DNA from: a bacterium
Lineage (GTDB): Archaea > Thermoplasmatota > E2 > JACPAO01 > JAHFTW01
NCBI GenBank assembly: GCA_040390065.1
Contig: JAZJZE010000009.1
Span: forward strand, 314,930-378,929
Reading direction: 5' to 3'
DNA: 64,000 nucleotides
Shown: positions 32,696 to 49,243 of the stretch, in pieces
Position numbering within the stretch: position 1 is the first letter of the stretch
How the letters are laid out: each line of letters opens with the position of its first letter
Position numbers and translations under genes: made by a program
The notes under the pieces: model-generated
The model's database searches: none
What the model saw: only the letters and a program-made list of their open reading frames with translations
What the model was told of the DNA's origin: nothing

Positions 32696-33571
32696 CTACG
32701 GATACGGGTCGATTGGAGCCTTGCATTGGTCGTCGTTGAAGCGGTACAGGTGGCCTTCGACTTCGGTGTCGTCGGTGAAGCCGTCGAACCCGCCGCGGCC
32801 CCCAATGTAAGGGTCTCCCATTTTCGACTGGAGCATAGGGGGGCGCATATGGCCGGTGGCGGGTACTACGCCAGGCTGGGCGGTTTGACTTGCCGCCGTC
32901 CAATCCAGGAGAGAAACGTGTCCGTGGGTTTCCCAGGCGACCCGCCGGATGATGCTTTCGGGGGAGTCGTAGGCGTGCAGTCGCTGATCTTGGACCTCGG
33001 AAACCTCTCCGCCTTCGGGTCTCCAACTGGCTGCCATCTTGTCGCCCTGGAAGGTCACGTTGATGGCCGTGTTCAAGGCGGGGAAGCCCAGTTCATCGCG
33101 CAGGAATCGGGTGACGTTCGCGTCGTCGACATAGATTGCATTCAGGATGTAGAAATTGTCGAACTGACCTCGGCGGCAGGCGGCAGGCGTGGTCATGTTG
33201 GTGTGCAACTCAAGGATGAACTGCAGCGGTCGCTCGTAGGGGCCCCACTGCACGCGCGCGCAATCGAAGAGTGCGACCCCGAGTTCGCTGCCAGGGCCCG
33301 AGGTTCCACTCCAGTTCGCAGGCGGTCCGCCCGGGTTTGTGGAGCCCGGCCAGGTCTCCGATGTCTCGAACATGCGGCAAGCGTTCCAAGTCGTGAAGAG
33401 AGGATCGGTGGCGTTTTCGAAACCGATCGGCACGGAGGGTGGCGTCGCGGTCGTCGCATCTGTCGATGGTGAAGAGGAAGACAGGATTGTTTTGGAAGTC
33501 GTCATGCACCCGGACGCAAGGAGCAGTAGAGTGAAACCAAGCGCCCGCAACGGTGGTTGCATGGTCAACAC
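32696..33571 (-). CDS. Cassette A lipoprotein (paralogue of 39408-40295)
   Basis: Lipobox LASGC; TTWNAC, TNPGGPPANWS, ERPLQFILELHTN and EGHLYRFNDDQCK shared with copy B. Confidence 0.8.
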   Translation of the reverse strand: MLTMQPPLRALGFTLLLLASGCMTTSKTILSSSSPSTDATTATPPSVPIGFENATDPLFTTWNACRMFETSETWPGSTNPGGPPANWSGTSGPGSELGVALFDCARVQWGPYERPLQFILELHTNMTTPAACRRGQFDNFYILNAIYVDDANVTRFLRDELGFPALNTAINVTFQGDKMAASWRPEGGEVSEVQDQRLHAYDSPESIIRRVAWETHGHVSLLDWTAASQTAQPGVVPATGHMRPPMLQSKMGDPYIGGRGGFDGFTDDTEVEGHLYRFNDDQCKAPIDPYP

Positions 33572-34092
33572 TCCGTGCTATCGGGAGACGTGCCGAGGCC
33601 GAGCCGGTATTGGCCGGGGGTCGGCAACTTCGTAAGCGAGGGGGGTTCATCGTTCGGGCCTGCCGGAAAATGAACTAGGAACGGGTTGCCCTTCATCTGA
33701 CCGCCAGTGTGAATGGAAACAGGGAAGAAAGGGGAAAGACCCGGCAGGACGCCGCCCGTGTTGGCTTTGAATTGGAGGCACAACACGCCGACGCGTGGTG
33801 TGCACTTGGTCAGGTCGCCGACCGGATTGGCTGGCGTTGCGGGCAGGATTTCGGCCCAATTGCGGACCACGTCGCGCAGGCAGTCCCACGTCGCCGCCGC
33901 GTCGGCCGTCAAGCCGCACGCGTCGCCGGGTGGCGGGGCCGGCGGATTGCATGCGGTCGCGTTGATTGCGTTGATGGCAGCCGTGACGACGTCCACGACG
34001 GCCTGGTCAAGGGTCTCGGGGTCGTCCGCGACGGCGGCGGGCAGGACGAAGAGCATGATGGTGGCGGTTGCGGCGAGTCGGCTGGCATTCAT
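33565..34092 (-). CDS. Cassette A small secreted Cys-containing protein (paralogue of 38917-39414)
   Basis: Signal peptide ending AVA; VVRNWA, GVLCLQF, TGGQMKG, GQYRL, terminal Cys. Confidence 0.75.
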   Translation of the reverse strand: MNASRLAATATIMLFVLPAAVADDPETLDQAVVDVVTAAINAINATACNPPAPPPGDACGLTADAAATWDCLRDVVRNWAEILPATPANPVGDLTKCTPRVGVLCLQFKANTGGVLPGLSPFFPVSIHTGGQMKGNPFLVHFPAGPNDEPPSLTKLPTPGQYRLGLGTSPDSTEC

Positions 34093-34260
34093 GGCGGGCC
34101 CGGAGGTGAGATTGCTGCACCGTACTTAGATGGCGTCGGACAACCATTGGTGTCGACTCCGCCAACAGGAGGCGCAGGCGGGGACCGACTTGCCTTGCAA
34201 CTACATGAAACCGATGGAAGGTTTCCGTCCCGCTGATAGCGATTTTCCGGAAATCGCTAG
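34093..34260 (-). promoter_or_regulatory. Conserved upstream region of cassette A with perfect palindrome at 34237-34259
   Basis: TAGCGATTT-TCCGG-AAATCGCTA; colinear blocks shared with 38750-38916. Confidence 0.7.
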
Positions 34261-34301
34261 GCATGGCTCCCGGCGCTGGCCAAAGAGGGGTCAGCGAGGC
34301 T

Positions 34302-35795
34302 TCAACCCGCCACGGGCGTCCGGCGCAACATCGTTCCGCCCATCTGCACGCCGACCGCGCCGCGGCTCGTGATCGTGTCCTTCGCCGTGCCGGTCGGCGT
34401 GGCGCAGGTGTCGTTGCACAGGTCGACGAGGGACACCCACACTTGGCCCGTCTTGGGGTGGATCTGGATGTCGAAGAAGTCGAACATGCCGCTGCAACGG
34501 CCGGCACACGCGCCGCGCTTCAACGGATCCACGACGGGGTTGGCAGTGACCGAAGCGAAGACGGGGTCCGGCTTGTCGGCGTCGAGGCTGAAGCCCAGGT
34601 AGCCGTTCCACGTCGCATTGGCCAGCGCCGCGTCCTTGGCGGTGAATCCGCCCGGCACGGTGCTGCCGACGTAAAGGAAGGCGATGCGGCCGCCGTCGCC
34701 CGCCGTCACGGCCGGGAACTTGGCCGCCGTGACGCCGGGGGCGGTGACGTTCATGCTGGCCTCGAACGTCTGGCCGTCGTCGTGGCTCACGGCGAGGCGA
34801 GGGAAGCCTTGGCCGTCGAGCCAGAAGTAATAGACCGTGCCGTTGGCGTCCGCGGCGACGGAGCCGTCGTGGCCGGAAATGCCGGCCGTACCGTCGACCA
34901 CGACCTGCGTCCACGTCGTGCCCATGTCGGTGCTGCGCGCGACTTCGGGGAAGCCGCACTGGCCCTTGGGAAGGAACACGGTGCCCGTCTTCTGCGAAGC
35001 GTAGACGTGCCCCGACAGGCCGCCGCAGAAGTCGGGTTGGCCGCCTTCGCCCTGGCCGGAGGTCGCGCCGGGGTACGGCGGCGCGCCGGCAACCCAGTCG
35101 AGGCCGCCGTCGAGACTGCGCGAGCAACTCGTGGCCGCGATCTGGTTGACGCAGTAGTACAGGACACGAGGGTAGACCGGGTTGGGAACGGCGGGTGCCA
35201 CGACGGGACCGGCCGCGATGCTCTGGTGGTCGTCGACGGGGATGCCGCAGGCGATCGGGTTGGTGGTCCACGTGACACCGTCGTCGTCGGTGTAGCTGAG
35301 GTCTGCGCAGCCGACGTACAGGTCGATGGTGAACAGGCGGCCCGTTGCCGGGTCGGCGTAGACGAACGGGTCGAGGCTGACCGGGTTCCCGGCCACGGCG
35401 CCGGCGTTGCCGATGGTCGGCGTGCGGTCGGTCCAGGTCGTGCCGTTGTCGGTGGAGATGTAGATGAGCGTCCGAGGTGCTGCGCCGGGCATGGCGGCCA
35501 CGGCGTCGAACTCGATGCTGGGGTAGATGGCGGCGCCGCGTGCGTTGACGCCGATGGTCGGCTCGCCCGAACCGCGCTTGGCGACGTAGTGCTCGGCCAT
35601 GACCGGGATGTCGCCGGGGTATTGGCTGGCATCCACGATGACGCCATCGGCGCGGTGCACGACGGGGACCTGGCCCGGCGCAGGCAGCGGGGGCGTCGTG
35701 TCCGTGCTGGAAGTCGAGGTGTTGCCGTTGTTGCCGGAACAGCCGGCGACGACGAGGGCGGCGATGGAGAGGGCCGCAAACAGGATGGCGCGCAT
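34302..35795 (-). CDS. Lipoprotein with BNR/Asp-box repeats (sialidase-like)
   Basis: Lipobox VAGC; STDNGTTW, TDDDGVTW, SLDGGLDW, STDMGTTW, SHDDGQTF. Confidence 0.85.
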   Translation of the reverse strand: MRAILFAALSIAALVVAGCSGNNGNTSTSSTDTTPPLPAPGQVPVVHRADGVIVDASQYPGDIPVMAEHYVAKRGSGEPTIGVNARGAAIYPSIEFDAVAAMPGAAPRTLIYISTDNGTTWTDRTPTIGNAGAVAGNPVSLDPFVYADPATGRLFTIDLYVGCADLSYTDDDGVTWTTNPIACGIPVDDHQSIAAGPVVAPAVPNPVYPRVLYYCVNQIAATSCSRSLDGGLDWVAGAPPYPGATSGQGEGGQPDFCGGLSGHVYASQKTGTVFLPKGQCGFPEVARSTDMGTTWTQVVVDGTAGISGHDGSVAADANGTVYYFWLDGQGFPRLAVSHDDGQTFEASMNVTAPGVTAAKFPAVTAGDGGRIAFLYVGSTVPGGFTAKDAALANATWNGYLGFSLDADKPDPVFASVTANPVVDPLKRGACAGRCSGMFDFFDIQIHPKTGQVWVSLVDLCNDTCATPTGTAKDTITSRGAVGVQMGGTMLRRTPVAG

Positions 35796-35821
35796 CACAC
35801 GGCGACGAGGGGTGGGGGATT

Positions 35822-36511
35822 TCACGTTTGTTGCAGCCGCCGCTCCGTCGGCCTGTGCGGGTGCAACGCCACGGGGCGCTCCAGGACGGGCTCAGGCTCG
35901 GCGTAGTCGAGGAGTGTCGTGCGGTGGGCAAGCATCGGGTCGAGGGCCACGCCGATCTCGGGCGTGACGCGCCAGCGCCCTGCCGTCGCGGCGACGCTCC
36001 AGCGCACGTCGGCGGCGTCGTACGTAAGCTGTGCGAGGACGGGGTGCGACTTCCACCAGCGCGCCATGTCGAGGCCGAGCATGATGGGGATGCGGTGGCG
36101 GCGCGCAACGTTCCGGAGGTGCCGCACGGCGTAGCGCGTGTAGTCCTCGGCTTCCCAGTCGGCCAGTTCGTCCGTGGAGAACAGGCGGTCGAAGGGCACG
36201 ACGAGGGCGAGGCTGGCCTCCGTCTGGGCGAGTTTTTCCGGCAAGTGTTTCGTGAGCACGGTGTCCCATTGGAACGGCGTCATGCAGCGTTTGATGAGCA
36301 TGCGTTGGGCGCCGTCGTCGGCGGCAAGGCCTCGCGTCAGGTTCAGTTCGGCAAAATCGTAGGGGTCGAAGCCGTGGTCGCCGTCGCACCAGAGCACGTG
36401 GCCCGGATGCGTCCGCAGCGCGAAGTGGGCAAGTTCCTGGCTGAAGCCGCGCACGTCGCGGCCGGAGCCGTGCAGCAAGGCAAGGCCGGGCTGCAGGAGA
36501 GGGGCCCACAC
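35822..36511 (-). CDS. Inactivated RecA/RadA-fold protein (iRadA/ImuA-like)
   Basis: VLWCDGDHGFDPY...RMLIKRCMTPFQ resembles the RadA-like D...FDPY..I.R.FT.YQ signature; no Walker A GKT/S. Confidence 0.6.
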   Translation of the reverse strand: MWAPLLQPGLALLHGSGRDVRGFSQELAHFALRTHPGHVLWCDGDHGFDPYDFAELNLTRGLAADDGAQRMLIKRCMTPFQWDTVLTKHLPEKLAQTEASLALVVPFDRLFSTDELADWEAEDYTRYAVRHLRNVARRHRIPIMLGLDMARWWKSHPVLAQLTYDAADVRWSVAATAGRWRVTPEIGVALDPMLAHRTTLLDYAEPEPVLERPVALHPHRPTERRLQQT

Positions 36512-36687
36512 ATGTCCAGGTACGAGGGCAACGAACGAAGGCTTGGTGATGAGGTAAGTGAAAGCCGCGCGCCCCTTGACAGGCCCAAACCCTTGTTGCA
36601 CATATCGGCCGGAAACTCTTTACGGACTCCAAGGGGATGGCCTGCCGTTCCAGCATGCGACGGGGCTCAGGCAGGTCGGCTCGCACC

Positions 36688-38676
36688 ATGGCGGCGTTCT
36701 CCGCATTGTGCGCCATGGCCATCCTGCTGCAGGCCGTGCCCGCCTCGGCGACCATCACGACATACTCCAGCAGCGTGGCCGGGGGCGCCCTCGCCGTCGC
36801 CACGGCCATGACGCGTGGCGAAGGCGCCAATGCCTTGGTCACAAGCGCCTCGTGGACAGTCTACCCGGCCCCTGGCGGCGTGCCGGCCGTCGGCTGCACC
36901 GCCGTCGCCGCCAACCCGACCCCGGCCGGCACCTCGGACGCCGCCATCACGACGGGCTTCGGGGTGCCAGACGGGGCCGCCTTCGGCCTGCTCACGACGG
37001 GCGACGCGGCCGACGCCAACACTCCCTCCGCCGGCGCCAACACTTGCAGCGGCACCACCGAGCGCGGCGCCAACGACGTGGTCGTGCAGCGCATCAACGT
37101 GCAGGTGCCCCCGGGCGACAACTGCCTGACGTTCACCTTCCAGTTCCTGAGCGAAGAGTTCCCAGAATACGTCAATTCGTAGTTCAACGACGCCTTCCTG
37201 GCGGAGGTCGACGCGGACACGTGGATCGTCTCGGGCGGCAGCATCAATGCCCCCGACAACTTCGCCTACGTCTCTCCCGGCGTGGCCGTCACGATCAACT
37301 CGCTGGGCTTCACGTACATGAGCGCCAGCAAGGCTGCCGGGACGCCGTACGGTGGCGGCTCCGACACCTTCTCCGCCAGCAAGGCCGTGACGCCGGGGCC
37401 GCATGCGCTCTTCCTCTCGATCTTCGACGCGAGCGACATGAAGCTGGACTCCGCCGTCTTCGTTGACGACATCCACACCCACGCCGTCGTGGACCCGGCC
37501 TCCAACTGCGCCTCCGGCATCCAGCCGAACCCGACGCAGCCGCCCAAGCCGCAGTACTCGTTCTCCGCCTCGCTCGTCGACAAGTCGTGCAACTCGGCGA
37601 CGTACCAATTCAGCGACACGAGCACACCGGCCAGCCCGTTCGTTTCCTGGGCCTGGGACTTCGGCGACGGGGGCACCGCCTCCGGATCGTCCGTCAGCCA
37701 CACCTACACGACGGAGGGTGCCAAGGTCGTGACCCTGGTGGCCAGCGACGGCAGCGGCGGGAGCTTCACGGTGACACAGCAGGTCATCGTGTCGTTCGTC
37801 TCCTGCCCGCCTACCATCGATGCCATCGCCCCTGGAACGGTGCTCCCCGGCGACGACGTCGAGGTGTGCGCCGTCGGCCACCCAGGCCTCGGCGGTGCGT
37901 TGTCGTACACCGTCGAGCGTCTCCCCGAGGGCGCCAGCTTCACGGGCCCTTGCTTCTCCTGGATCCCGACGGACTCGCAGCGCGGCACCTATCCGTGCAT
38001 CTCCATCACGGTGCACGAGGCGGGATCGACGCTGACGGCGACGACGTGCCTCAGCATCCGGGTGGCTGCGCCCTCGACCGAGCCTGCCCCCGACGCGGAC
38101 CTCGACGGCATCCCCGACTCGGCCGACAACTGCAGCGCCACGTCCAACCACGACCAAGCGGACACCGACCGGGACGGTGTCGGCGACGCGTGCGACCCAG
38201 AGTGCGGGCCTGACCCCGCCTGCCCGGCTACGCGCATCGCCGACGGTGCTCGCGGCCGCCGCACCTTCGCTCCCGACGGCGACCAGGACGGCACGCCTGA
38301 CACGACCGACGATTGCCCGACCGTCGCCAATCCGGACCAGTCGGACCGCGATCGCGACCAGATCGGTGACGCCTGCGACGCGGACATCGACGGCGACGGC
38401 ATCGCGGACGTCGGCGACGCGGGGGCGTTCCTGGACAACTGCCCGCTCAAGCCCAACGCGGACCAGAAGGACGCAGACGGCGACGGCGTCGGCGACGCCT
38501 GCCAGCCTGCGGCCGCAGGCCCGGCGTCGGCGACCACTGGAAGGATGGCCAGCCAAGCGCCTGTGCGCTCGACGTTCGAGGACCTTGGCATGACCCTCGT
38601 CATCGCGGCTGGTGTGGCGGCGGCCCTGACGGCAGGCCTCATCGCCATGGCGCTGCGCCGCGGCCGCCACGGTTAG
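36688..38676 (+). pseudogene. Choice-of-anchor-L-like + PKD + TSP3 surface protein interrupted by a single in-frame TAG (37180-37182)
   Basis: ORFs 36637-37182 and 37282-38676 are in one frame; the motif FLSEEFPEYVNS*FNDAF spans the stop; the C-terminal half is paralogous to the Kelch proteins. Confidence 0.75.
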
Positions 38677-38749
38677 TTTCGCGCGAGGCGGCGTCGCGTC
38701 TGTTTGTAGCCGAGGCGCAAAGGATGCGCGAGGAGCGGGTGAAGCCAGT

Positions 38750-38916
38750 CTAGCGATTTCCCGCAAATCGGCATCGGCAGACACGCCATGCCGCGCTAGC
38801 CTCAAGTACCGGCACGCCAAGCCGGATTCGCCCTTTCCTCCCGTTGCACGGGCCAAGGCCAACGCTTGTCCGACGCAGGCTAAGAAGGAGCGCCAACTCG
38901 ACCATTACGTGAACCC
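38750..38916 (+). promoter_or_regulatory. Conserved upstream region of cassette B with imperfect palindrome at 38751-38773
   Basis: CTAGCGATTT-CCCGC-AAATCG and CCAA..TTGTCCGACGC...CTAAG at the same offsets from ATG as in cassette A. Confidence 0.7.
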
Positions 38917-39414
38917 ATGCGTTCCCTCGCCCTCCCCATCACCGCCTTCCTGCTCACCTTCGTGCCCATCGGGCCCGCCCACGCCGACCCCATCGCGACA
39001 CCAGCGGCTGATGACTTCGTCGACGCCATCATCACGATCACGGAACTCCTCGACGACGCCCCATGCCTCGCCCCGACCGTGCCGCAAGTCGGCGACTGCC
39101 CAGGGCAGACGGGCAACACGACGGTTGGCTGGCTTCTCGGAGTCGTCGACAAATGGGCCAGCCGCACACCAGGACCGGACGAGGCCCGCGAGGACGTGGC
39201 GAATTGTCTTGATGGGGTCTACTGCGTGGAGTTTTGGCTTGGGTCCAATGAACCCATCCAAGCCTGGGCCAGCCCGCTGATTGTTTCGACGGGCGGCGGG
39301 ATGCTCGGCAAGGACTTCATGGTAAGCAGTGACGGCCGTCACCGCCTCCCCGGGCTGGCGGGACTTGGCGCGTATCGGCTTCTGGAAGATTCCGGGGGCG
39401 GCACACATTGCTGA
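38917..39414 (+). CDS. Cassette B small secreted Cys-containing protein
   Basis: Signal peptide ending AHA; VVDKWA, GVYCVEF, TGGGMLG, GAYRL, terminal Cys. Confidence 0.75.
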   Translation: MRSLALPITAFLLTFVPIGPAHADPIATPAADDFVDAIITITELLDDAPCLAPTVPQVGDCPGQTGNTTVGWLLGVVDKWASRTPGPDEAREDVANCLDGVYCVEFWLGSNEPIQAWASPLIVSTGGGMLGKDFMVSSDGRHRLPGLAGLGAYRLLEDSGGGTHC

Positions 39415-40295
39415 CCCGCGCGGCCCGGCAGCTGACTGCCCTCTGTGTTGTGCTTGCAGCCGTCGTTGCCGGTTGTAGCCAACCGCATCCCACTTCATCA
39501 CAGTCTGAATCCGCCCCCCGTCCCGAACCCGAACCCGCGCCAGCGCCATCCCCGAACGCGACCTCGCCTACCTGGGACGACCTCAACTTCACGACGTGGA
39601 ACGGATGCCACCAACTGACCTCCGGCGTCACGTGGCCGGCGGATACGAACCCCGGGCGCCCACCCGCGAATTGGTCCAGTGCATCCAGCGGCCTCGGAAG
39701 TGACGTCCGAATGTCCTTCTTCTCGTGCCAGCGGTTCCACCTCGGACCTTTCGAACGCCCGCTCAACTTCGTCCTCGAACTGCATACCAACGCCACGCTG
39801 CCGGTCACTTGCAAAAAGGGAAGTTGGGAACTTTTCCAGTACGTGAACGGCCTATGGACCGATGATGCCGACGTCGTGACGTTCTTGGCTACCCAACTCG
39901 GGCTGCCTGCTCACATGGCGACCGTCGCTGTCGAAACTGGGGGCGTGGCAGGCGTGTCCTTCAACGCCACATGGACCTGGACGCCGGAAAGCGGTCAGAC
40001 GTCCGACGTCTCGACGGGCCAGATTCTCGCGAAGCAGGCCGGAAGCACGGACACGGAGCGGCTTGCATGGGTCACAGCAGGAAAGGTTTCGCTCCTCGAC
40101 CTCAAGATTACTCGAGCCAACTACCTGCCCCAGGAAATCGCGACCCCGGGCCACATTCGACCCCCCATGCTGGCATCGGCCCTGGGAGACCCATATCCGG
40201 GAATTGGGGGCATCGCGGGCTCCGGTGACGTCGAGGGCCACCTGTACCGTTTCAACGACGACCAATGCAAGCAGCCCATCGACCCTTACCCGTAG
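39408..40295 (+). CDS. Cassette B lipoprotein
   Basis: Lipobox VAGC; motifs shared with 32696-33571; ends PIDPYP. Confidence 0.8.
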   Translation: MLTRAARQLTALCVVLAAVVAGCSQPHPTSSQSESAPRPEPEPAPAPSPNATSPTWDDLNFTTWNGCHQLTSGVTWPADTNPGRPPANWSSASSGLGSDVRMSFFSCQRFHLGPFERPLNFVLELHTNATLPVTCKKGSWELFQYVNGLWTDDADVVTFLATQLGLPAHMATVAVETGGVAGVSFNATWTWTPESGQTSDVSTGQILAKQAGSTDTERLAWVTAGKVSLLDLKITRANYLPQEIATPGHIRPPMLASALGDPYPGIGGIAGSGDVEGHLYRFNDDQCKQPIDPYP

Positions 40296-43529: not shown

Positions 43530-45053
43530 CTACTCCGCAGCGACGTACGCCACCGAGCGCCCCTGGCGTTCGCCGTGGACGAGGCCGCCCTTGGCCAAAC
43601 GGTTGAGGCGATGCTGCGCCGTCGTGCGCTTCCAGCCATGCTGCTCCACCATGACTTCGAGGATGTCCTTCTGGGTCAGCCCGGGGGAAGCGGCGACGAC
43701 GGAGTGCAGCAGGCTGAGTTCTGGCTCGCGAAGGTAGACCGTTCGCTCCCAACCCTGCTTCGCCGCCGCCTTGGGGAAGAACCTGCGGGTGGAACCGTGC
43801 AAGTGCTCCACGGCCATGCCGTTGCGCACCAGGATGCCGAGGTGGTGATTGGCTTGGCTCGGCGACGACTTCGTGATGCGCGCCACTTCGCGCAGCGTCG
43901 CCCCCGGATTCGCCGCCAGCACGGCCCAGATGGCATTGCGCACGGGATGGGAAAGTGGGTCGCGCAGGCGACGCGTGAAGAACCCAGCTAGGAGTCCCTT
44001 CACGACGAGGACGCCTGCGACGACGGCGCCCACGACGGCGACCGAGACAGAGGCGCCAAGAAGCAGCCCGGGGGCAATCGCGGCTTCATCGTACTTGGCG
44101 GTCCGAACGGTGCCCGAGAAGCCGGCGCTGGCCCGGCCAGACCCGGCTTGATGGATCCCGTCCAGACGCAGGGTGCCCGTCGCTTGCAGCGTTTGGTTCT
44201 CTGGCAACTCGCAGGTGTCGCAGTCGGTCGAACCCTTTGCGAGCGGGAGCCGGACCCAGCCGTCGACGTCCAGCGTCAGAGACGGGCCGCCGAGCAGGGC
44301 GAGGCCGACGACGCCGGCAGCGTGAAGCGAACCGCCGGTCGTTGCCAGTTCCTCGTAGTTGTACGAAAGAAGTTGCACCAGTTGGTCGGGTGGCAGCCGC
44401 ACGTCCTGCCTCTGCAGGCCGCCGCCATCGGGACAAGGCGACGCGTCGCAGGCAACGGTGGCGTTGAACCATTCCACGGTCCGGACTCCGGTCGCCTGCA
44501 CCTCATAGGCGAATCCCGTAGCTCCAAAGAAGTCGTAGCGGCCGACCACGTCACCGTCCTGCCCGGCGCGGCCACGGAAAAGGCGGTCGTAAGGGCCGCT
44601 TTCTGGTACAAGTTGCGAAAACGGCCGTCCCTTTGCCTTCGCGGCGAGTTCGGCGGCGCCGCCGGCCACGTGAATCGATATGGATTTCGCCTCCACGTAC
44701 AACGAGGACCGACCGCCGAGACGCAGAGTTTCGCCGGTGCCCGCCACCGTCAGGTTCGTGTCGCCACCCTGGCCCGGCAGGTCGACACCGCCCGATGTCG
44801 GACTGTAATACGAATTGATCTGGACGGTGTGGTTTGTCACGACGGCGCCGGCTGCTTGGTGGACGTCCACAACGGACGGCGCAGCCGCCGCGTCCGTGAA
44901 CAGCAGCAGGCGCGCACCGCCGGAAAGCGTCGCGTTGCCCGAAAAGGCCGCGGGAAGCGCGAAGTCAAGCGAGGCCTGCGGCTCCCCGGCGGCAAGAAGC
45001 GGCGCGGTGGCCAAGAGAATGGCGAGGACTACGGCGCAATGGGGTGCTTGCAT
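43530..45053 (-). CDS. Membrane-spanning transcription regulator: extracellular domain + TM + two winged HTH domains
   Basis: Signal peptide; TM LLLGASVSVAVVGAVVAGVLVV; HPVRNAIW..NPGATLREVAR...HHLGILVRNG and SPGLTQKDI...HRLNRLAKGGLV. Confidence 0.8.
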   Translation of the reverse strand: MQAPHCAVVLAILLATAPLLAAGEPQASLDFALPAAFSGNATLSGGARLLLFTDAAAAPSVVDVHQAAGAVVTNHTVQINSYYSPTSGGVDLPGQGGDTNLTVAGTGETLRLGGRSSLYVEAKSISIHVAGGAAELAAKAKGRPFSQLVPESGPYDRLFRGRAGQDGDVVGRYDFFGATGFAYEVQATGVRTVEWFNATVACDASPCPDGGGLQRQDVRLPPDQLVQLLSYNYEELATTGGSLHAAGVVGLALLGGPSLTLDVDGWVRLPLAKGSTDCDTCELPENQTLQATGTLRLDGIHQAGSGRASAGFSGTVRTAKYDEAAIAPGLLLGASVSVAVVGAVVAGVLVVKGLLAGFFTRRLRDPLSHPVRNAIWAVLAANPGATLREVARITKSSPSQANHHLGILVRNGMAVEHLHGSTRRFFPKAAAKQGWERTVYLREPELSLLHSVVAASPGLTQKDILEVMVEQHGWKRTTAQHRLNRLAKGGLVHGERQGRSVAYVAAE

Positions 45054-45490
45054 TCGAGGTCACTGAATCTGTGGAACGTGCCGGTCAGGCGGTAGCTTGG
45101 CTGCACGAGTCCACGCCCTTCGTACGCGGTCTGGCCGAGCCGGCTGTACAGCATGGGCGGGTTCATTGTGCCCGTCACGACATAGGGTTGGAGCCCGAAG
45201 GTCGATTCTTCCCGAAGGTCGAGCAGCGTGACGTTCGTTCCGGCGATCCACACGACGCGGATGATGTCGTGGCTTGGCTTGGGGTTCAACTCCGGGTCGT
45301 CCGCACTCATGGAGGACTGCATGCCCGCCGGGGTCCGCCACGTGGCTGCCATGCGGGGGACCGGGGAGGCGGGAGTCCAGTCAAAACCGATGTCCGCCGG
45401 TCGGGCCGGGAACGCGTACGCGGTCGAGACCATCGCGGAGACGTTGCCATCGCTGACGTGCCACACTCCGGGATCCGGCAGGCCGTGATC
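45029..45490 (-). pseudogene. 5'-truncated third copy of the cassette lipoprotein
   Basis: RVVWIAGTNVTLLDL, GTMNPPMLYSRLG and GTFHRFSDLECKHPIAP match copies A/B; N-terminal half and lipobox missing. Confidence 0.7.
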
Positions 45491-45825
45491 AACCACAAGG
45501 CGACTGCTCATACCTGGGGCCGCCCAGCAACACCTGCGATACCCAGCTGCCCGCTCAACAGAAGCCAATTACCGCCGGAATCAGCGGACACGGCTACGAG
45601 GACCTGACCGATGGGGACGAAAATACAGCCCCCGAAACCGTCACCGCTCACCTCATCGATGGCTGGGCCTCGTGGGGGTTCAATGATCCTCTGACTGTCA
45701 TCGGGTCGCCTGCCGCGCGCCAAGGAGCCGACTATCCAGGTTCATCTGGAATCTCATGGAAGACCATCGACCCGCAGGGAGCGGTGTGCGCGGCGCCGGG
45801 CCTCGGCCTTGCCTGCGCCCTCTAG
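45481..45825 (+). pseudogene. Start-less C-terminal fragment of a probable secreted protein
   Basis: Open frame QPQGDCSYLGPPSNTCDTQ...AVCAAPGLGLACAL* bounded upstream by TGA 45454-45456, with no usable start; ends 10 nt before the next ATG. Confidence 0.5.
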
Positions 45826-47317: not shown

Positions 47318-49243
47318 CTAGTGCGCCACCTTCTCCAGCGCCGCCTTCAACCTCGCGGAGATCAACTGCCCGTCCGCCTTGCCGCGCAACTCGGCCATGA
47401 CGGGGCCCATGAGCGGACCGATGGCGGCCATTCCCTTTGCCTTCACGAAGTCGACGCGCTCGGCGATCACTTTGGCGATGACGGCGTCCACGGCGGCCGC
47501 GTCGAGCGATCCTGCTCCAGCCTTGGCCATGGCGGCATCGAGGCTCTTCTCCCCGGCGTCGAGGGCCTTGAGGATGTCCGGGATGGCTTCCTTGGCGAAC
47601 TTGCCTGCGCGAAGGGCGGCAAACATCCCCGGCAGATGCGCGAGCACCGCGTCGGGCGTCTTGAGTTCCGGAAGGTACTGCAGCAGGACGCGCGCCGCCA
47701 GAGGGCCCTCGGCTCCGGCTTGCACGAGTTCCTGGAATTCCGCCTCCATGCCGTCGGCCACGAGTTGCTGCGCGATGTCCTTGCTGACGCCGTTTGCCTT
47801 GACGAACAGGGCGACCTTTTCCTCGGGCTTCGGCGGGAGGCGGCCCTTCACGTCCTTCCACGTCGCCGCGGAGACGAGAATTGGTGGCACGTCCGTCTCC
47901 GGATACATGCGGGCCGCTCCCGGCATGGGCCGCATGAAGCGCGTCGAATCGTCCGGCTGCACCGCGCGGACTTCCTGCTGGAATGCACTCGCCGCCTGAA
48001 CGTACCTTGCGGCTGCGGCGGCCACTGCCATCCTGGCGATGGCAGGCTTCTCGACGCACAACGCGAACGCGTCGGCGGCACCGCACCCGAGAAGCTGGCG
48101 CACGGCGTCGACTTCGGCCTGGGTGATGCCGTAGCCTGGCAACTCGTCACTGTGGAAGATACCCTTGACGCCGGCCGAGACCTTGGCGTGGTCGGCCAGT
48201 TCGCGGCCGAGGCGGGGCCCGTCCTTCGTCGCCCCCTTGAGGAGTCCCGCGCCGTGCTGGAGGCGTACTCCCATGACCACGGCGCCGCGCTGCAACGACT
48301 CCCGCACGACCTTCGCCGTCGTCGCCGCCAGCGCGGCCGTGACATCGTGAGGCACGTCGGCCTTCGCGCCGCCGAGCCGCTTCAACTCCTCCCGCACGTG
48401 GTGCATCCACAATTGCCGACGGCACTCCGCCTCGATGATGCGGGGAATCGCGCGCAGGTCCTGGCAGCCCTTGATCTCGACGCGGGCACCGACGCCGACG
48501 GAGACGTTGAGGTCCTGCCGGATGGTGCCGAGGCCACGCTTGACGCGCCCCGTCGCCCGAAGCAGGGCACCGATGCGGGCCGCGGCCCGTTGCGCGTGCT
48601 GCGGGTCCACGATGTCCGGCGCCGTCGCCACTTCCAGAAGAGGAATGCCGAGGCGGTCGAGAGTGTACGTCACGACGTCGGCTTCGCCTTCCAGCTTGCG
48701 CGCCGAATCCTCCTCCAACGCCATCGTCCAGATGCCCACGTCACCACCCTCCACGTCGAGCTTGCCACCGGTCGCGATGAGGGCCGTGCGTTGGAAGCCC
48801 GACGTGTTGGAGCCGTCGATGACGGTCTTGCGCATGACGTGCACTTCGTCGACGGGTCGGCCGGCTACGAGGCCCGCGAAGGTGAGTGCCACGTCGAGAG
48901 CATCGGTCGACATTGGGTGAGGCGGCTCTTCGTCCAATTCGACAAGGCTCGACAGGCCGTCCATCACGAGGTAACGGAAGCGACGGTTGCGCCTCGCCTC
49001 GGCCGCTGCCGCTGCGTCGACTTCGCCCAGCTCGGAGCCGGTCGCGCGAAGCACCCGCTCCACGGTCGCAACGGTGCGCCTGGCAACGTCGTCGGGTTCG
49101 ACCACGTCACTGGGGCAGGGGCTGAACAGCTTGCGCGTCGCCAGCTGCTGATGGATCTCCAGGCCACATCGGAAGCCGATGGCCTTGTAATCGAGCTTCG
49201 CCGCCTGGCTCGCGCGTGCCGCGTCGTCTCCTAACGTCGTCAT
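47318..49243 (-). CDS. gatE: Glu-tRNA(Gln) amidotransferase subunit E
   Basis: GLEIHQQL, DEEPPH, MRKTVIDGSNTSGFQRT, RGLGTIRQDLNVS, HSDELPGYGI, RPMPGAARMYPETD. Confidence 0.97.
   Translation of the reverse strand: MTTLGDDAARASQAAKLDYKAIGFRCGLEIHQQLATRKLFSPCPSDVVEPDDVARRTVATVERVLRATGSELGEVDAAAAAEARRNRRFRYLVMDGLSSLVELDEEPPHPMSTDALDVALTFAGLVAGRPVDEVHVMRKTVIDGSNTSGFQRTALIATGGKLDVEGGDVGIWTMALEEDSARKLEGEADVVTYTLDRLGIPLLEVATAPDIVDPQHAQRAAARIGALLRATGRVKRGLGTIRQDLNVSVGVGARVEIKGCQDLRAIPRIIEAECRRQLWMHHVREELKRLGGAKADVPHDVTAALAATTAKVVRESLQRGAVVMGVRLQHGAGLLKGATKDGPRLGRELADHAKVSAGVKGIFHSDELPGYGITQAEVDAVRQLLGCGAADAFALCVEKPAIARMAVAAAAARYVQAASAFQQEVRAVQPDDSTRFMRPMPGAARMYPETDVPPILVSAATWKDVKGRLPPKPEEKVALFVKANGVSKDIAQQLVADGMEAEFQELVQAGAEGPLAARVLLQYLPELKTPDAVLAHLPGMFAALRAGKFAKEAIPDILKALDAGEKSLDAAMAKAGAGSLDAAAVDAVIAKVIAERVDFVKAKGMAAIGPLMGPVMAELRGKADGQLISARLKAALEKVAH

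Follow-up and report, generated by a model that had tools for sequence, protein, structure and literature searches.

How is a signal carried from the surface of an archaeal cell to its genome, and could two small gene cassettes that match no catalogued family be part of the answer? Signal transduction across the archaeal membrane is poorly understood, and the transmembrane transcription regulators (TTRs) of archaea have, to our knowledge, been counted but not studied mechanistically. The question is raised by a 64,000-nucleotide (nt) stretch of a Thermoplasmatota genome (GenBank assembly GCA_040390065.1, contig JAZJZE010000009.1, positions 314,930 to 378,929; hereafter the window). The host is an archaeon, as indicated by a match to GatE (TIGR00134) above the cut-off at 47318-49243. 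It carries two cassettes, A and B, that point away from each other, each consisting of a gene for a small secreted protein followed by a gene for a lipoprotein. Our analysis suggests that these cassettes are part of an archaeal cell-surface co-sensing module, in a derived form that is regulated in trans, and we give this reading a probability of about one half. The four genes are as follows, the start codons of all open reading frames (ORFs) in this work being predicted.

33565..34092, minus strand: ORF of small secreted protein A, 175 residues, with a signal peptide (N-terminal hydrophobic segment), six Cys and a C-terminal Cys
32696..33571, minus strand: lipoprotein A, 291 residues, with a lipobox-like ASGC, a Ser/Thr/Pro linker and the C-terminal sequence FNDDQCKAPIDPYP
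38917..39414, plus strand: small secreted protein B, 165 residues, with a signal peptide, five Cys and a C-terminal Cys
39408..40295, plus strand: lipoprotein B, 295 residues, with lipobox VAGC, a linker, a predicted acetoacetate-decarboxylase (ADC)-like beta-cone at about residues 50-290, and four invariant Cys besides the lipobox Cys

An initial annotation of this region had proposed these four ORFs, which are present at exactly these coordinates, and had described them as two paralogous operons. Both pairs bear this out: lipoproteins A and B are 47% identical over 239 aligned columns (E 4e-75), and the more divergent small proteins are 29% identical over 178 columns (E 4e-9), with the previously noted pattern of VV..WA, GV.C..F, TGG.M.G, G.YRL and a terminal Cys in their alignment. 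Among the small-protein paralogs C50, C97, C103 and C165 are invariant. As also reported at the outset, both junctions read Cys codon-TGA-CC, the lipoprotein ORF starting 7 nt before the end of the small gene (GAGTGTTGACCATG and CATTGCTGACCCGC), and the 3' ends of the two lipoprotein genes are nearly identical (61 of 75 nt match), so placed that they register as a 72-nt inverted repeat with 88% complementarity.

Are these cassettes unique to the window? The lipoprotein family occupies 11 loci in the window's own genome (G000; 2.68 Mb, 50 contigs, 89% complete), comprising eight full two-gene cassettes and three variant loci, of which two are distant variants and one is a C-terminal half within the window (45029-45568). 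In all eight cassettes the small gene ends in Cys and the lipoprotein ends in FNDDQCKxPIDPYP or a near variant. Co-occurrence across the genome, the check that the initial annotation had called for, was complete, with eight of eight matches to the small-protein profile, a hidden Markov model (HMM), lying directly upstream of a lipoprotein gene; with eight cassettes and every small-protein match paired in this way, the pairing is not due to chance. In a quick maximum-likelihood tree with support from the Shimodaira-Hasegawa-like approximate likelihood ratio test (SH-aLRT), the eight cassettes group as a single clade (SH-aLRT 98) that falls within the three-gene modules. Cassette A clusters with the copies designated C21 and C9:430k, and cassette B with the one designated C17. 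A and B are therefore not each other's closest paralogs and their head-to-head layout is not a recent inverted duplication, so that the earlier description of mirror-image copies stands for their orientation and falls for their origin. Furthermore, the PIDPYP tail is limited to own-genome proteins among the 150 best metagenome representatives. By the tree and the tail, the window cassettes belong to a derived, genome-specific clade that lacks a cis regulator gene.

The wider distribution of the two proteins is very different in extent. None of the four cassette proteins matches a family in Pfam, NCBIfam, PADLOC or PHROGs, in agreement with the initial annotation, which had recognized neither family. 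Searched against 1.84 billion proteins including metagenomes, the lipoprotein profile retrieved 485 cluster representatives at E<=1e-3 and 236 at E<=1e-30, and the lipoprotein family is thus an uncatalogued one of about 485 clusters. Lipoprotein matches occur in 20 of 41 related genomes and in 17 of the 24 that fall within the same taxonomic family, and a single 4.2-Mb genome carries 33 of them. The sister family yields weak matches to the N-terminal part of the profile only, and 12 related genomes from other families yield no lipoprotein match. When 301 genomes were sampled evenly across the phylum, 10 had a match at E<=1e-8; all but one of these belong to the window's own order, namely G000, seven of nine further genomes of its family and one of the sister family. 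The lipoprotein family is thus nearly confined to one family of uncultured Thermoplasmatota. The small-protein profile, by comparison, matches only the eight own copies and one protein of a congener, and an HMM iterated over all loci taken from relatives did not grow beyond these nine. Word-index homolog searches of a large protein index with the lipoprotein and small-protein profiles returned own-genome proteins only, and a search of genome contigs with the C-terminal motif of the lipoprotein found no relative.

The structure of the lipoprotein is predicted with high confidence. AlphaFold2, given a 98-sequence alignment, modeled lipoprotein B with a predicted local distance difference test score (pLDDT) of 91.2 and a predicted template-modeling score of 0.81; in the model, signal peptide and lipobox are followed by a disordered Ser/Thr/Pro linker and then by an all-beta domain at about residues 50-290. 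Foldseek matched this model to 24 PDB entries at E<=1e-3, and among the matches listed (17) all were ADC-like (MppR, Sbi00515, Swit_4259 and ADCs). The initial annotation had guessed an ADC-like fold without the catalytic Lys, and both halves of the guess proved apt: the model points to a double-barrel beta-cone over the whole domain, and no Lys is found among the invariant or near-invariant columns of the 98 sequences, the most Lys-rich column reaching only 22%. For lipoprotein A the same ADC-like beta-cone would follow from the model of its paralog. What is invariant is the lipobox Cys (C23, with G22 near-invariant) and four other Cys, which presumably form two disulfides; W89, R109, E116, R117, P118, D153, S199, R218, W221 and D284 are near-invariant. 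A lipobox-like motif is present in 106 of 126 full-length representatives, and the lipoprotein is thus predicted to be exported by a signal peptide and lipid-anchored.

A Schiff-base lysine is the catalytic basis of ADC-like enzymes, the known members of which are soluble cytoplasmic enzymes. The titles of PDB entries 4zbt and 6eej record this lysine in ADC-like enzymes. The known members 3bgt/3bh2/3cmb/3c8w, MppR 4jm3, Sbi00515 4zbo and Swit_4259 5upb share 6-10% identity with the lipoprotein, which, unlike the ADC-like enzymes, is predicted to be exported, lipid-anchored and disulfide-bonded. A Pfam scan of the 98 members at E<=1 found no ADC family, and the lipoprotein profile found only lipobox or signal-peptide matches and chance matches among PDB sequences at E<=10. 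The lipoprotein would therefore have the ADC fold without a conserved Schiff-base Lys, and functional membership of the superfamily fails because the defining lysine is not conserved.

Does the linkage to a small secreted protein extend beyond the window's genome? The DNA around 57 lipoprotein homologs from relatives and the 11 own loci, 68 lipoprotein ORFs together, gave a positive answer: upstream of 50 of the 68, an ORF on the same strand runs up to the lipoprotein start and carries a Cys in its last 11 residues, a feature of 26% of all ORFs of 100-260 residues. These upstream ORFs look alike in design, with an N-terminal hydrophobic segment in 47 of 51 and a median of 120 residues after it, an even Cys count after the segment in 46 of 47, and a last Cys that is the final residue in 22 of 51 and lies no more than three residues from the end in 41 of 51. 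In sequence they have little in common, 32 of 50 being BLAST singletons, and the small protein is, as far as these comparisons reach, an orphan. The ESM Atlas gave no usable match for either the small protein or the regulator ectodomain described below, its models being poor (pLDDT 0.33 and 0.39), and hhalign detected no relationship among the lipoprotein, small-protein and regulator-ectodomain profiles (probabilities 0.9-2.8%).

In the relatives the cassette has a third gene. A regulator gene of about 500 codons directly follows the lipoprotein ORF in 47 of 57 cases (including open-ended reading frames), with a gap of -27 to +48 nt in the 36 cases with closed ORFs. In the own genome this arrangement occurs at three of 11 lipoprotein loci, which are the two distant variants and the truncated copy. 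Behind its signal peptide, the regulator protein has an ectodomain of about 330 residues in which a C-x4-C is conserved, then one transmembrane helix and two cytoplasmic winged helix-turn-helix (wHTH) domains, with matches to HTH_20, HTH_HVO_0163_N and MarR_2 in Pfam and to an ArsR/SmtB-type HTH in NCBIfam. By this domain architecture, the third gene is a single-pass TTR in the sense of Demey et al. (2023; PMC10269533). The window holds one such gene, next to the truncated lipoprotein homolog:

43530..45053, minus strand: module regulator, 507 residues, with Pfam and NCBIfam wHTH matches, overlapping the truncated lipoprotein ORF by 25 nt
45029..45568, minus strand: truncated lipoprotein homolog (C-terminal half), a 179-residue ORF matching profile positions 148 to the end (E 3.7e-29)

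The truncated homolog lacks a signal peptide and a lipobox and has no small gene upstream, and 43530-45568 as a whole looks like a decayed three-gene module. The parts of the module have diverged at different rates. In nine pairs of related modules the small protein has diverged most, followed by the regulator ectodomain and the lipoprotein at about the same level, and then by the cytoplasmic wHTH part. The small protein is the most diverged part in seven of nine pairs and less conserved than its lipoprotein in nine of nine, whereas in pairs that include a regulator conservation is highest in its wHTH tail.

Other observations concern the same regulator family. More than 25 further ORFs of the own genome match the regulator profile in its transmembrane and tandem wHTH part alone, their N-terminal regions being different ones and often very large (for example G000 C11:61442-63496, C5:371985-374291 and C12:12061-15477), making up a large family of membrane-anchored tandem-wHTH proteins. 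In relatives (L049, which is G022 C56:4800-14464, and L043, L034, L054 and L064) modules stand in tandem arrays, such as three lipoprotein genes and two regulators within 9.7 kb, or adjacent pairs of lipoprotein genes.

What, then, could control the cassettes that have no regulator gene of their own? The upstream regions of the cassettes share four conserved blocks, namely a palindrome AGCGATTT-N5-AAATCGCT, TTCATGTAG, CCTCCTGTTGG, and CACCAAC-N3-TGTCCGACGC, the last with a TATA-like CTAAGTA after it, at about 35-40 nt from the ATG. In the window, the first and last of these are located as follows.

34238..34258, no strand assigned: palindrome AGCGATTTTCCGGAAATCGCT, candidate operator, 146 nt upstream of the start of small gene A
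38752..38772, no strand assigned: palindrome AGCGATTTCCCGCAAATCGGC, candidate operator, 145 nt upstream of the start of small gene B
34134..34150, minus strand: promoter-proximal block CCAAT-N3-TGTCCGACG, then TATA-like CTAAGTA, upstream of cassette A
38859..38875, plus strand: promoter-proximal block CCAAC-N3-TGTCCGACG, then TATA-like CTAAGAA, upstream of cassette B

With up to two substitutions, AGCGATTT-N5-AAATCGCT occurs at seven sites in 2.68 Mb. Five of the seven lie 145-147 nt upstream of cassette start codons, both window cassettes included, and a sixth precedes a stand-alone regulator gene, G000 C9:272603-274207, by 145 nt. This gene encodes a full-length regulator paralog (E 8e-111, with Pfam wHTH matches and 33-41% identity to the listed cis regulators), and all of its upstream region can be aligned with the corresponding regions of the cassettes. 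Across the genome there are 12 sites of the core GATTT-N5-AAATC, eight of them at seven of the eight cassettes (139-153 nt upstream) and at the stand-alone regulator (148 nt upstream). Because the palindrome is kept while the flanking sequence diverges, it suggests the operator of a common regulon, and the stand-alone regulator would be the protein that binds it. Because the same promoter and palindrome also precede the stand-alone regulator, the cassettes most likely form one regulon, putatively controlled in trans and autoregulated by that protein.

Several further occurrences of these elements were recorded. Two of the four extra core sites are in suggestive contexts (G000 C1:367440 and C9:155690), one separating a soluble tandem-wHTH gene from a divergent gene for a secreted protein, the other preceding by 57 nt a 200-residue secreted protein ending in ...VGCV. 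The motif CCAAC-N3-TG[TG][CG]CGACG is also present about 30-70 nt upstream of other candidate genes (G000 C1:76995, C9:500889, C21:2114, C9:381041, C1:152133 and C5:446180), three of which encode a 578-residue secreted protein, a 474-residue lipoprotein and a 155-residue membrane protein, and it may mark a promoter class for exported proteins. In the relative's locus L054, paralogous modules share a palindrome of their own, CCAGGTGCTCTTGCACCTGG, at a similar upstream distance. A transfer RNA-like sequence, recognized by eye, lies directly upstream of the promoter region of the stand-alone regulator (L066, G000 C9:272300-274700).

These results can be joined in one scheme. The usual module consists of three tightly packed genes, for a small secreted protein, a lipoprotein and a membrane regulator. 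The lipoprotein, perhaps together with the small protein, would capture a ligand or partner at the cell surface and pass the signal to the regulator ectodomain, and the regulator would then change transcription from the membrane. In the own genome, one clade would have lost its cis regulator gene and multiplied to eight two-gene cassettes, which would have kept an ancestral promoter of about 170 nt, including the palindrome about 145 nt upstream of the start codon. In the simplest history, an ancestral three-gene operon would have split into one locus with the promoter and the regulator and another with the two-gene unit, which multiplied under the same promoter.

We favor co-sensing because a fast-evolving, lipid-anchored beta-cone encoded beside a membrane-tethered winged-helix regulator follows the logic of co-component systems. 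As far as the account of Kinch et al. (2022; PMC9214523) goes, these systems evolve fast and set a beta-barrel co-sensor beside a membrane-tethered transcription factor; bile salts are bound by VtrC or ToxS, which pass the signal on through VtrA or ToxR. As in VtrA/VtrC and ToxR/ToxS of that account, the gene of a membrane-tethered winged-helix regulator is adjacent to or overlaps that of a membrane-anchored, putative extracytoplasmic co-sensor, at the 47 of 57 loci in relatives and three of 11 in the own genome and absent in cis at the window cassettes; as in VtrA/VtrC, evolution of the cassettes is fast and a small, hydrophobic ligand is predicted. The module differs from these systems in the reversed polarity of the regulator, in having a small secreted protein as an additional partner, in its archaeal host, and in its lipoprotein, which is not a lipocalin-like co-sensor homologous to VtrC or ToxS. 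If the reading is correct, the module would be an archaeal counterpart of ToxR/ToxS and VtrA/VtrC made from unrelated parts.

Among archaeal regulators, ArnR has an N-terminal HTH domain and C-terminal transmembrane helices, and we know of no lipoprotein partner for it. ArnR and ArnR1 of Sulfolobus acidocaldarius are likewise archaeal membrane-bound one-component transcription factors, a likeness drawn from their description only (PMC6396743). The third gene of the module shares the single-pass architecture of the surveyed TTRs, and its first wHTH matches PF24266 (HTH_HVO_0163_N) above the gathering score. That survey counts TTRs and, in its main text, does not deal with lipoproteins, accessory partners or Thermoplasmatota (PMC10269533). 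Relative to that text, the additions are a lipoprotein and a small protein as dedicated partners, and cassettes that lack a regulator but share a candidate operator. Targeted literature searches (ADC-like lipoproteins; HVO_0163; archaeal transmembrane regulators with a lipoprotein) retrieved no description of the module. New here are an exported, apparently lysine-less use of the ADC fold in an uncatalogued lipoprotein family, a lipoprotein and a hypervariable small secreted protein as putative dedicated partners of one large TTR subfamily, and a testable prediction of regulator, operator and regulon built on a fixed-distance palindrome at seven cassettes and one regulator gene.

Several points weigh against co-sensing. 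Binding between the parts, ligand sensing and the identity of the palindrome-binding protein are steps that we infer, and both window cassettes lack a cis regulator gene. We know of no demonstration that the tandem wHTH tail of such archaeal membrane proteins binds DNA. The link to the stand-alone regulator is drawn only from the shared promoter, which could have been inherited through the duplications. The specific palindrome is missing from the modules of relatives (three unrelated sites in 236 kb), and with a generic palindrome test the upstream regions of modules (31 of 42) could not be told apart from random windows (296 of 400). AlphaFold2 gave no usable fold for small protein B from eight sequences (pLDDT 44.8). 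In addition, the near-invariant R109, E116, R117, D153, S199, R218 and D284 could allow an enzyme with a different chemistry, in which case the lipoprotein would be the output of the operon and not a sensor. Beside these points, a complex prediction for lipoprotein B 50-295 with small protein B 24-165 scored 0.00 against a mark of 0.32, the fold of the partner itself being uncertain.

The enzyme is the starting point of the alternative that survives best, which we regard as a tentative and somewhat unlikely one. A regulated surface enzyme or uptake module would use the lipoprotein, as an enzyme or a binding protein outside the cell, to act on a small, probably hydrophobic substrate through residues other than Lys; the small protein would be a helper or a substrate-presenting partner, and the regulator ectodomain would itself detect the substrate and switch the operon on. 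However, the Schiff-base Lys that defines the ADC enzymes is missing, the loci read show no consistent linkage to genes for transport or catabolism, and the extracellular parts diverge faster than the cytoplasmic part, which is a better fit to recognition than to conserved catalysis.

A second alternative, polymorphic recognition or conflict, appears improbable to us. On this reading, the role of the small protein would be that of a protein pheromone (a diffusible signal) or of a toxin-like effector, with the lipoprotein as its cognate receptor or immunity protein and the paralogs as different specificities, serving kin recognition or an archaeocin-like system. The extremely fast divergence of the small protein, with its nine profile matches and its many singletons, and the high copy number (33 matches in one genome) agree with this. 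Gram-positive pheromone cassettes hold signal, receptor and regulator genes in one operon, and the layout of the module resembles them. In a more specific and quite doubtful version, the module would be an archaeal protein-pheromone or kin-recognition circuit in which the small protein is the signal, the ADC-fold lipoprotein the receptor and the tandem-wHTH protein the transducer of binding into transcription; the paralogs, eight of them with one operator, would be distinct "pherotypes" converging on one regulator. Such a circuit, if real, would be the first protein-based cell-cell signaling system proposed for archaea. Yet PADLOC, PHROGs, Pfam and NCBIfam found no toxin, protease or pore-forming domain and no toxin/immunity or anti-phage defense domain in the four cassette proteins, immunity proteins, unlike this beta-cone lipoprotein, are usually cytoplasmic or integral to the membrane, the even number of Cys points to a stable extracellular fold and not to a processed peptide, and no export or processing genes are linked.

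That the two are purely structural surface proteins (envelope or S-layer-associated parts, or a filament subunit and its anchor, with an incidental regulator linkage) is very improbable, since their predicted export and disulfide bonds and the Ser/Thr/Pro stalk typical of surface display are set against a three-gene linkage in 47 of 57 relatives' loci too tight to be incidental, a compact beta-cone without repeat or polymerization feature, and a presence in only 10 of 301 phylum genomes (E<=1e-8) that does not befit a core envelope part. The roles offered in the initial annotation, ligand/receptor signaling, toxin/immunity and filament subunit/anchor, thus find partial support, the filament proposal being rejected for want of any supporting feature.

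One other gene of the window was noted. Between the cassettes, 36637-38676 (plus strand) encodes a secreted protein with a choice-of-anchor L domain, PKD and thrombospondin type-3 repeats and a C-terminal transmembrane segment. It is broken by a single in-frame TAG at 37180-37182, inside the choice-of-anchor L domain (...EYVNS*FNDAF...), which could be a nonsense mutation, an assembly error or a site of read-through.

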